Assembly: GCA_964587505.1 (NCBI GenBank)
Contig: CAZPLD010000001.1
Location: 1-45,709 of the forward strand
DNA from: an uncultured Candidatus Saccharibacteria bacterium
GTDB lineage: Bacteria > Patescibacteriota > Minisyncoccia > 2-02-FULL-40-12 > GWA2-44-9
Direction: 5' to 3'
Length of the DNA stretch: 45,709 bases
Part shown: positions 1,613 through 2,456 of the stretch, piece by piece
How positions within the stretch are numbered: position 1 is the stretch's first letter
Layout of the letters: each line of letters starts with the position of its first letter
Translations under genes and position numbers: made by a program
The notes under the pieces: generated by a model
Told to the model about the DNA's origin: nothing
Databases searched by the model: none
The model's input: the letters and a program-made list of their open reading frames with translations, nothing else

Positions 1613-1733
1613 AGATAGTTATAATACATTATACCACACTTTCTTTTTGGTGGAAATTGCAATTGTGCATAAAGTATGATATGTTAGATTACAGAAATCG
1701 CGGGGTAGAGCAGCGGCAGCTCGTCAGGCTCAT

Positions 1734-2373
1734 AAGAAATTGTGACCTATCATAGTAATGTGGTATGGAAAACTTCCGAAATTGCCGGAAACCCGATTCG
1801 CCAAAGGCGAAGGGCAATCAGCAGCCAAGGATTGTGTTCTTTATAATTTAGCTTCTCTTAATTGCCGATATGATTTCTCACGACGTTCTAATTCGTCCCG
1901 AGATAACTTATAGGTTTTGGGCGGACATTCAAGTTGATAGCCAATAGCAATGTCTGCTTCATGAGATTTGGTAATAAGGAATGGTTTAACTTTCTGGAGA
2001 AGAATGCAAGCTTCCCGAGATGACCAAGAAACTGTATAAGATTGTTTGCGAAGTTTTCCTGTATCAAGAGTTCTTGTTCTTCTTTTTTTATAAATTGTTC
2101 CTCCAAAGTGTTCTTGAATCCAATTAATTGTTTTCAAAGAACACATACATATCTCCATTCTCAAAGAGTAGCGAGCATTGATGTAAGGAAAAGCTGGCTT
2201 CCGACGGAAAATAGAAATATGTCCTTCTCCGTCGATAAGACCCGCTAAATAAGCAACATCGGTCATATGTAAATTATAGCACAATCAAGGTTCAGAGACT
2301 ATAATGGAAGCATCCGCCAATTGGCGGATGATGGGATAGTCCGACACTGTCAGTAATGGCAGCTAACAGCCAG
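1734..2373 (+). mobile_element. Group I intron in the anticodon loop of tRNA-fMet
   Basis: Begins after the T of CAT and ends in G. Core-like segments: gaaattgccggaaaccc (1778..1794), cagcagccaagg (1819..1830), ggttcagagactataa (2289..2304). The stem gattgtg/cacaatc brackets the ORF insert. Confidence 0.75.
1841..2266 (-). CDS. LAGLIDADG homing endonuclease (single-motif type), antisense to its host intron
   Basis: MTDVAYLAGLIDGEGHISI... Start moved to the second Met. TGcTATAAT (2281..2273) lies 6 nt upstream of the ATG. Confidence 0.8.
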   Translation of the reverse strand: MTDVAYLAGLIDGEGHISIFRRKPAFPYINARYSLRMEICMCSLKTINWIQEHFGGTIYKKRRTRTLDTGKLRKQSYTVSWSSREACILLQKVKPFLITKSHEADIAIGYQLECPPKTYKLSRDELERREKSYRQLREAKL

Positions 2374-2413
2374 AACCTGAAGGTCGTGGGTTCGAATCCC
2401 ACCCCCGCAACAA

Positions 2414-2456
2414 AAATAAATCAGGGCTACCCTTTACGGGTGGTTTTGATTTATTT
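2414..2456 (+). terminator. Long hairpin after the tRNA-fMet 3' exon
   Basis: aaataaatca-gggctaccc / gggtggttt-tgatttattt, with G-T wobbles valid on the plus strand and a T-rich tail. Confidence 0.5.

Follow-up and report, generated by a model that had tools for sequence, protein, structure and literature searches.

Organization of the locus

The stretch of DNA analysed here, contig CAZPLD010000001.1 of an uncultured Candidatus Saccharibacteria bacterium, is a single contig of 45.7 kb (45,709 nt), which we call the window and to which all counts of tRNA genes in the window refer. It carries an initiator tRNA gene (tRNA-fMet) that is interrupted between positions 36 and 37, directly after the CAT anticodon, by a 640-nt group I intron, and one hairpin loop of this intron holds, on the opposite strand, the gene of a predicted LAGLIDADG homing endonuclease. 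An earlier note written from the letters alone had proposed this arrangement, and a reading of positions 1500-2700 bore out all of its coordinates and sequence statements. The features of the locus are listed below, with the helices of the intron numbered P1 to P9, the terminal loop of P6a called L6, and "cells" standing for the pair-by-sequence entries of the covariation alignment described in the next section.

1651..1680, plus strand: candidate tRNA-fMet promoter TGGAAA-18-TATGAT, lying 18 nt before the 5' end of the tRNA and agreeing with the consensus at 9 of 12 positions (consensus scan)
1699..1733, plus strand: exon 1 of the tRNA-Met(CAU) of initiator type, comprising the acceptor 5' strand, the D arm and the anticodon stem and loop to U36 (ARAGORN)
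1734..2373, plus strand: group I intron, 640 nt, between tRNA positions 36 and 37 (partial RF00028 match, alignment, covariation)
1730..1745, plus strand: P1, with pairs U1730-A1745, C1731-G1744, A1732-U1743, U1733·G1742, A1734-U1741 and A1735-U1740 and a GAAA loop (95.5% of cells paired)
1746..1768, plus strand: P2 hairpin with a GUAA loop (98% of cells paired; double-sided changes in 8 of 9 pairs)
1773..1777, plus strand: 5' strand of P3, partner 2306-2310 (99.4% of cells paired; 4 of 5 pairs compensatory)
1784..1822, plus strand: P4 (1784-1788 with 1818-1822; P and Q elements) enclosing the P5 hairpin (1792-1814), from the alignment
1824..1836, plus strand: 5' strand of P6 (1824-1826) and 5' arm of P6a (1830-1836), with double-sided changes in 7 of 7 P6a pairs
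1837..2279, no strand assigned: L6 insert of 443 nt, the endonuclease gene cassette (alignment with L057 and L037)
1841..2266, minus strand: gene of a 141-aa single-motif LAGLIDADG (I-CreI-type) endonuclease, as predicted from Pfam, a PDB profile, an AlphaFold 2 model and dN/dS, antisense to the intron RNA
2273..2281 (read 2281 to 2273), minus strand: predicted extended -10 promoter TGCTATAAT (TGcTATAAT), from the sequence and conserved in relatives
2280..2291, plus strand: 3' arm of P6a (2280-2286) and 3' strand of P6 (2289-2291), from covariation
2295..2302, plus strand: 5' strand of P7 (R element) with bulged A2296, partner 2336-2342 (RF00028, high posterior probability)
2306..2310, plus strand: 3' strand of P3 (covariation)
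2311..2330, plus strand: P8 hairpin (6 of 6 counted pairs compensatory)
2336..2342, plus strand: 3' strand of P7 (S element), from the RF00028 alignment and its invariance
2347..2362, plus strand: P9 hairpin with a GUAA loop (6 of 6 pairs compensatory)
2373, plus strand: terminal G (omega-G) of the intron, from the sequence
2374..2410, plus strand: exon 2 of the tRNA-fMet, from A37 to the discriminator A73 (ARAGORN)
2414..2456, plus strand: candidate tRNA terminator, an inverted repeat followed by a T-rich run (inverted-repeat search)

An initiator tRNA gene split by a group I intron

The interrupted gene is the sole initiator tRNA gene in the window, and default searches pass it by. ARAGORN with its default settings reports six tRNAs in the window, none of them for methionine, and the Rfam tRNA model at gathering thresholds returns the same six and detects neither the tRNA-Met nor the intron. 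Once 1734-2373 has been removed in silico, ARAGORN calls a 73-nt tRNA-Met(CAT), which agrees with the claim of the earlier note that the two exons fold into a cloverleaf only when spliced and answers the check on the spliced sequence that it had suggested; when introns are allowed, the program places the tRNA-Met at 1699-2411 with a 640-nt intron after position 36. Both hallmarks by which the gene had been assigned to the initiator class can be read in the sequence: C1 stands opposite A72, leaving 1:72 unpaired in the spliced cloverleaf, and an A11:U24 pair is present in the D stem (GAGC/GCUC). The anticodon is CAU, and CCA is not encoded in the gene. The exons are identical to those of two relatives (L132 and L134; relatives are referred to by locus number) and 1 nt off those of a third (L057). 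The candidate promoter upstream is a weak match that is not above shuffle expectation, and a terminator scan of the window made no call at the candidate terminator downstream.

The identification of the insert as a group I intron is secure by homology and covariation, and self-splicing is predicted from structure and homology. The U that group I introns have before the 5' splice site is T1733 of the CAT anticodon, and the terminal G is G2373, as the note had said. Of 71 sequences compared, 67 keep a U·G wobble where the window has U1733·G1742 at the 5' splice site, and a G precedes the AAC or AAG of exon 2 in the window and in all relatives. Three core segments that the note had picked out turned out to be the classical P (1778-1794), Q (1819-1830) and R (2289-2304) elements, and an S element (2330-2342) is present as well. 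The 7-bp stem it had described (1830-1836 with 2280-2286) is P6a, in which relatives show compensatory changes. The window sequence accommodates every core helix, the P3/P7 pseudoknot among them, and the manual P1-P9 fold that had been proposed as a check was completed and carried over to the relatives by mapping its 54 pairs onto an alignment of 71 sequences.

Standard pairs fill 96.7% of 3809 cells in this alignment, compared with 36-45% when the 3' partners are slid by 1-3 columns, and double-sided changes occupy 814 cells, where the slid controls have 91-171. For covariation the score is 0.575, compared with about 0.1, and none of 500 shuffles reaches any of the observed measures. Compensatory changes occur in P1, P2, P3, P6a, P8 and P9, and the changes are almost wholly compensatory in all of these except P1. 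P6 and P7 are invariant and P4 is nearly so, the invariance of P7 being due in part to its 5' strand, the R element, having served as the search pattern. An independent L-INS-i alignment gives the same picture. RNAalifold recovers P1, P2, P3, P4/P5, P6a, P8 and P9 but not the pseudoknotted P7, which we added by hand from the R and S elements. When 1837-2279 is left out, the intron measures 197 nt and aligns end to end with two introns that lack an open reading frame (ORF), those of L057 (211 nt) and L037 (213 nt), whose exons differ from those of the window by 1 to 4 nt.

The covariance-model check that the note had suggested gave a divided answer. There is no group I match in the window in Rfam gathering mode; in E-value mode, RF00028 (Intron_gpI) matches 2149-2363 on the plus strand with 24.9 bits (E=6e-4) against a gathering score of 50, and the match covers the 3' core only, with high posterior probability over the R element, P3', P8, the S element and P9. 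We attribute the sub-threshold score to the 443-nt L6 insert, which separates the 5' half of the intron from its 3' core.

A family of introns in the initiator tRNA genes of Patescibacteria

A scan for a 17-mer of the R element, with one genome per bacterial species, yielded at least 119 loci, at least 74 of which have an ORF-less insert of 197-341 nt directly after the CAT of a tRNA-Met gene (36/37), with the same kind of acceptor stem as the window tRNA. The genomes concerned are almost all metagenome-assembled genomes of Patescibacteria, the Candidate Phyla Radiation (CPR); examples, within L007-L125, are L057:3938-4164, L037:6111-6339 and L016:1937-2225. All 14 ORF-less relatives that were tested against the Rfam group I model pass it, with 52-88 bits (gathering 50). 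In ORF-less relatives L6 measures 4-20 nt, compared with 443 nt in the window, and about nine ORF-bearing copies are known versus the at least 74 without an ORF.

With introns allowed, ARAGORN often sets the intron a few bases off in the ORF-less relatives and so labels them tRNA-Leu(CAG/AAG); their exons show that the gene is the same. Standard finders, then, either miss the initiator tRNA gene entirely, as in the window, or misname it tRNA-Leu, as in the relatives, and CPR genome annotations may wrongly lack an initiator tRNA. Translation initiation in the intron-bearing CPR organisms seems to hinge on a ribozyme.

The relatives vary in several respects. Position 33 is C (loop CCCAUAA) and not the near-universal U33 in L014, L024, L025, L028, L051, L070, L078, L095, L105, L109, L113 and L122, and in these tRNAs the guide sequence of P1 carries a compensating G for A (GUGG versus GUGA). 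Position 1 of the intron-bearing tRNAs may be C1, A1 or U1 opposite A72 (L025, L029, L054, L078, L088, L120 and many AGCGGGG loci); with U1 a pair to A72 would form, something not expected of an initiator tRNA in bacteria. L001:569-1386 and L088 have an extra helical insertion of 60-90 nt in P4/J3-4, between AAAUUG and CUGG, a second site at which the ribozyme tolerates expansion. Other group I introns share the R and S elements and lie outside tRNA-fMet (L030, L046, L062 and L086 from Clostridium and Sarcina; also L039, L041, L072 and L098). About ten Flavobacteriaceae genomes share GGTTCAGAGACTATAATTTTG.GAATTC... followed by a conserved AT-rich sequence (L023, L033, L047, L052, L071, L101, L103, L108, L114 and L116); this GGTTCAGAGACTATAATTTTG element has neither S element nor tRNA exons and is unrelated to the tRNA-fMet introns.

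A predicted I-CreI-type endonuclease gene in the P6a loop

The ORF begins with an ATG at 2266 and ends with a stop codon at 1843-1841, all on the minus strand and within the terminal loop of P6a. It fills L6 almost exactly, with 4 nt between the stop codon and the 5' arm of P6a, and the ORF list holds no comparable frame on the plus strand of L6. The earlier note had described a 141-aa ORF bracketed by the 7-bp stem and carrying a LAGLIDGEG motif, and this description is joined by a match to Pfam LAGLIDADG_1 (PF00961; 23.3 bits, cut-off 23.1) and by an I-CreI-type fold. phrog_5046 matches over the full length of the ORF (2e-18), and a profile of 18 homologues compared with the PDB finds I-MsoI (5.7e-14), I-CreI (about 5e-7) and also I-CvuI. 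The motif YLAGLIDGEG occupies residues 6-15, and D12, G13 and E14 are each at least 90% conserved in the 18 sequences. The AlphaFold model (predicted local distance difference test, pLDDT, 88.5; predicted template modelling score, pTM, 0.81) has a helix at 2-14, strands at 15-22 and 32-41, a helix at 44-54, strands at 57-65 and 72-82 and a helix at 83-96, which make up an alpha-beta-beta-alpha-beta-beta-alpha core, and Foldseek aligns it with I-CreI at a TM score of 0.76-0.77 (E about 1e-7). Pairwise ratios of nonsynonymous to synonymous change (dN/dS) among intact copies are 0.05-0.12 at dS 0.4-1.6, which argues that the minus-strand frame is a real gene under purifying selection; the L134 copy is truncated. 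The product is a predicted I-CreI-type LAGLIDADG homing endonuclease. The public annotation (P0012, 1841-2146, minus strand) holds only the last 101 aa, starting at Met41, presumably because the true start has no ribosome-binding site.

Purifying selection would fit any protein function, and it is conceivable that the intron splices while the ORF has ceased to be a homing endonuclease and is kept as a maturase or DNA-binding protein. LAGLIDADG maturases exist in organelles, I-AniI is among the PDB matches, and ORF-bearing introns persist in diverged hosts. We consider such a role unlikely, as nearly every member retains the motif's acidic residue (DGE) and the fold matches active enzymes over its full length. 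The at least 74 ORF-less relatives keep the intron without the protein, so splicing is independent of it, and the truncated L134 copy and the patchy distribution fit a homing cycle of gain and loss.

A homing endonuclease would be expected to leave a record of movement among the introns. The cores of the ORF-bearing tRNA-fMet introns form one cluster at 76-91% identity, plus L006, whose core is closer to that of the ORF-less L016 (79%) than to that of the window (69%). Such interleaving of ORF-bearing and ORF-less cores, along with the existence of a truncated copy, is what a homing cycle (invasion, then decay, then loss) should produce, and a single ancestral insertion with many losses would fit equally well. 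The DNA of the anticodon stem-loop at the intron-less site is symmetric at 7 of 11 positions around A35, and a partly palindromic site of this kind would suit a homodimeric enzyme; the intron-less tRNA-fMet site would read GCAGCTCGTCAGGCTCATAACCTGAAGGTCGTGGG.

A metagenome scan gave 452 confirmed matches at 27-38% identity, and relatives in this range are mostly free-standing, lying either among small genes arrayed on one strand or in the genomes of phages. Two of them are found inside other group I introns. One, a LAGLIDADG gene of 36% identity (L135:1148-1712), occupies the P6 loop of an intron that scores 34 bits with Rfam and is again antisense; the gene comes from a high-GC organism, and its intron interrupts something other than a tRNA gene. 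The other, at 34% identity (L143:907-1400), has the sense orientation.

Antisense orientation and a predicted promoter of its own

The tRNA and its intron are encoded on the plus strand and the ORF on the minus strand. The same holds in every copy traced: in L001-L004, L006, L131, L132 and L134, which come from several unrelated studies (L002-L004 from Hainich groundwater, 0.2-µm fraction) and encode proteins of 73-92% identity, with one (L006) at 46%, the ORF lies antisense inside a tRNA-Met(CAT) intron. The opposite-strand gene that the note had singled out in the window is therefore found in all ORF-bearing relatives traced, and its remark that the endonuclease mRNA would be fully complementary to the precursor tRNA (pre-tRNA) holds as geometry. 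Its premise that intron endonuclease genes normally lie in sense orientation stands for bacteria and phages in the literature searched, and fails for eukaryotic nuclear rDNA introns, where antisense cases exist (PMC9548176).

Since the insert is flanked by inverted 7-bp arms in a metagenome-type contig, one might ask whether the loop was simply inverted during assembly. Arms of seven base pairs fall well short of what could lead an assembler astray, the promoter lies against the 3' arm in every case, and at least eight assemblies, made independently in different studies and with proteins diverging by up to 54%, agree on the orientation. This recurrence in unrelated assemblies excludes an assembly artefact for practical purposes.

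The extended -10 box that the note had placed 6 nt from the ATG is present and conserved among relatives. TGCTATAAT ends 6 nt before the ATG at 2266, and its TG is the end of the 3' arm of P6a. In an alignment of upstream regions, the window, L005, L131, L132 and L134 all have TGTGCTATAAT with exactly 6 nt between it and the ATG; L001 and L003 have the same extended -10 box as TGTGCTATAAT with a spacing of 9 nt, and in L006, whose protein is 46% identical, the ATG comes 6 nt after TGTGCTATACT. The extended -10 consensus reads TGnTATAAT, and promoters of this class usually have a poor -35 region. The window contains six copies of TGNTATAAT against 1.6 expected, and one of the others lies in front of the neighbouring gene at 932-1612. 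No Shine-Dalgarno sequence precedes the ATG at 2266. Transcription starting 6-7 bases past the hexamer would place +1 on the A of the ATG, and from the 6-nt spacing, its conservation and the lack of a Shine-Dalgarno sequence we predict that the endonuclease mRNA is leaderless. The predicted antisense RNA would run through P5-P1 and exon 1.

In four relatives an elongator-type tRNA(CAU) (L001:1616-1688, L003:1477-1551, L131:2891-2964, L132:2829-2900) and a peptidase M16 gene follow on the endonuclease strand. In these relatives the endonuclease gene is co-oriented with its neighbours, and the tRNA-fMet gene is the oppositely oriented one.

Could the orientation be the main point of the arrangement? 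The antisense transcript might regulate the supply of initiator tRNA, or be held down by transcription of the tRNA, through an RNA duplex or polymerase collision. The full complementarity of the mRNA to the pre-tRNA, an orientation and promoter conserved down to 46% protein identity, and the lack of a terminator between the ORF and exon 1 would all be in keeping with this. A single ancestral insertion nevertheless suffices to account for the conserved orientation, the ORF-less relatives manage without an antisense transcript, and the 34%-identical relative in L143 is in sense orientation, which makes a regulatory purpose rather improbable in our view. An extension of the same thought is equally a long shot: in a genome-reduced CPR bacterium whose sole initiator tRNA depends on self-splicing, the overlapping antisense leaderless endonuclease mRNA could form a built-in sense/antisense circuit. 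High transcription of the tRNA gene would then silence the endonuclease by collision or duplex cleavage, transcription of the endonuclease would throttle the supply of initiator tRNA, and the activity of a selfish element would be tied to the host's capacity for translation initiation.

A model for splicing and homing

We propose that the tRNA gene is transcribed on the plus strand and that the intron then folds into P1-P9 and would remove itself by guanosine-initiated two-step transesterification at U1733·G1742 and G2373, restoring the anticodon loop CUCAU|AA. The endonuclease gene would be transcribed separately from the minus strand, from the extended -10 promoter, with its start at or next to the A of the ATG. 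The 141-aa protein would dimerise like I-CreI and cut intron-less tRNA-fMet genes in the DNA of the anticodon stem-loop, and repair from an intron-bearing copy would spread the intron together with the gene. We speculate that, by being reversed, the endonuclease gene is expressed independently of the promoter of the tRNA and brings no ribosomes onto the ribozyme precursor, at the price of an mRNA complementary to the pre-tRNA. Taken as a whole, a group I intron in a Patescibacteria tRNA-fMet gene with a reversed I-CreI-type endonuclease gene in its P6a loop, acting in the way just outlined, is in our judgement the probable explanation of the locus.

A number of observations sit less comfortably with this proposal. 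The window intron does not reach the Rfam gathering score, as described above, and its core has one blemish, a C1786·A1820 mismatch in P4 that is common to 5 of the 71 sequences. The anticodon stem (UCAGG/CCUGA) has an A-U pair at 29:41 and so two of the three initiator-type G-C pairs (29-31 : 39-41); many relatives are likewise without the full three (GGAGG/CCUCC), and the two-pair stem looks like a trait of the lineage. For the antisense transcript no recognisable -35 box was found, the -35 region falling in the invariant R element and matching at 3 of 6 positions, and a terminator scan from the ORF to exon 1 found no canonical terminator. ORF-bearing copies are rare (none of the at least 74 in the genome-collection sample), and the target specificity is deduced from co-occurrence, the distant relatives being mostly free-standing, phage-like genes.

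The first two of these points, along with an extra copy of the tRNA 3' end (19 of 20 nt) lying 208 nt downstream, which shows that the locus has been rearranged, might instead suggest a dead remnant, that is, a tRNA-fMet pseudogene with a decayed, non-splicing intron and an intact initiator tRNA elsewhere in the genome. We think this very unlikely. The core pairs are all canonical except for the P4 mismatch, which five relatives share, and the low Rfam score is accounted for by the 443-nt insert. The exons are intact; they match the exons of L132 and L134 letter for letter and differ at a single nucleotide from those of the ORF-less L057, and at least 74 related genomes keep an intron at this point of tRNA-fMet with conserved exons. 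The neighbouring tRNA-Met genes in relatives are of the elongator type.

Relation to known systems

The window protein resembles I-CreI, I-MsoI and I-CvuI in size (141 aa compared with about 150-170), in its one LAGLIDADG motif and in its full-length fold, but shares only 17-22% identity with these homodimeric enzymes from introns of algal chloroplast 23S rRNA genes. All three are encoded in sense orientation in organellar rRNA introns. The endonuclease I-Ssp6803I, found in the group I intron that comes closest in its host gene, is likewise encoded on the sense strand of its intron. That intron, in the tRNA-fMet gene of Synechocystis sp. PCC 6803, is 655 nt long and encodes a 150-aa enzyme of the PD-(D/E)XK family (PMC1995217). 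Like the window intron it is bacterial, sits in the anticodon loop of an initiator tRNA, is of similar size (655 versus 640 nt) and encodes an endonuclease of about 150 aa; it differs in its enzyme family (PD-(D/E)XK as opposed to LAGLIDADG) and in its host (a cyanobacterium as opposed to a CPR bacterium).

Among small introns of tRNA genes, the Anabaena tRNA-Leu and Azoarcus tRNA-Ile introns lie in another tRNA, at another insertion position, and have no ORF. We take the window intron to resemble these IC3-type introns in being small, in lying in the anticodon loop, and in its compact P1-P9, in which GNRA loops cap P2 and P9. A published list gives the IC3 subclass for bacteria (PMC3984707). 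The 16S and 23S rRNA genes of CPR bacteria contain LAGLIDADG-encoding insertions and group I introns (PMC11270868, PMC8172020, PMC11809585), which share with the window the bacterial radiation, the enzyme family and an essential structural RNA as host, and differ in that the host genes are those of 16S and 23S rRNA. For group I introns in CPR tRNAs there is one sentence citing a private communication (PMC8172020).

The closest parallel to the reversed gene comes from myxomycetes, where group I introns of the nuclear rDNA have been documented to carry endonuclease genes in antisense under internal promoters (Didymium iridis Dir.S956-2; D. squamulosum Dsq.L2066 / I-DsqI; PMC9548176). In these introns, as in the window, the endonuclease gene lies in a peripheral loop, is antisense to both ribozyme and host RNA, and has an internal promoter, which in the window is a predicted one. 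The Didymium systems involve His-Cys box enzymes, rRNA genes, RNA polymerase II, polyadenylation and spliceosomal introns, whereas the window has a LAGLIDADG enzyme, a sigma-70-type extended -10 box and a predicted leaderless mRNA in a bacterium without compartments. Antisense interference with the precursor has been raised for the myxomycete introns, and separation of nucleolus and nucleoplasm has been proposed as the answer (PMC9548176). The window may pose the bacterial version of this question, namely how a host RNA and a fully complementary mRNA coexist in a cell without a nucleolus.

Our literature search for antisense intron endonuclease genes in bacteria returned only eukaryotic nuclear and organellar cases, an absence that is no proof that a report is lacking. 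The 2024 survey of CPR rRNA insertions (PMC11270868) does not contain the words antisense, opposite, orientation or tRNA, and a 2014 review of bacterial group I introns does not mention antisense or opposite-strand genes. Taken singly, the kind of host gene, the kind of intron and the enzyme family are familiar; the combination of tRNA-fMet, a LAGLIDADG enzyme, a reversed, leaderless and minimal cassette, and a bacterial host appears to be undescribed. It offers a compact bacterial case of an endonuclease gene carried backwards inside a ribozyme, in which an extended -10 box, a predicted leaderless ORF and a stop codon fill a single hairpin loop. A small I-CreI-type protein with a target that is presumably specific to a tRNA gene could also be of interest as a meganuclease scaffold.

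Neighbouring gene and downstream repeat

Upstream of the tRNA, at 932-1612 on the minus strand, lies a gene of 226 aa with an N-terminal helix-turn-helix and a match to phrog_4151, annotated 'DNA binding protein' (2e-5). It starts 87 nt upstream of the tRNA, divergent from it and on the same strand as the endonuclease gene, and has its own promoter-like site at 1656 to 1628 with a TGgTATAAT box. L005 has the same gene upstream of its tRNA. A stretch 'FIAGLALYLAEG' in this gene raised the thought of a second LAGLIDADG gene, which we rejected, as it yields only helix-turn-helix domains and the phrog_4151 match, with an hhalign probability of 0.3% and no PDB match.

Downstream, the repeated tRNA-fMet 3' end mentioned above (CGAATCCCACCCCC(C)GCAAC) occupies 2393-2411 in the gene and 2601-2620 in the copy. 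A reading of 2457-2620 as a second split tRNA or a permuted transfer-messenger RNA (tmRNA) was set aside, having no ARAGORN or Rfam support, and no tRNA, tmRNA or Rfam family was detected between the two copies. A further stretch is also repeated (2448-2467 and 2686-2705), and after either copy of the tRNA 3' end come a hairpin (2414-2456 and 2625-2654) and GATTTATTT. The downstream copy could be a remnant of a duplication, or of an element that integrated at the 3' end of the tRNA gene.

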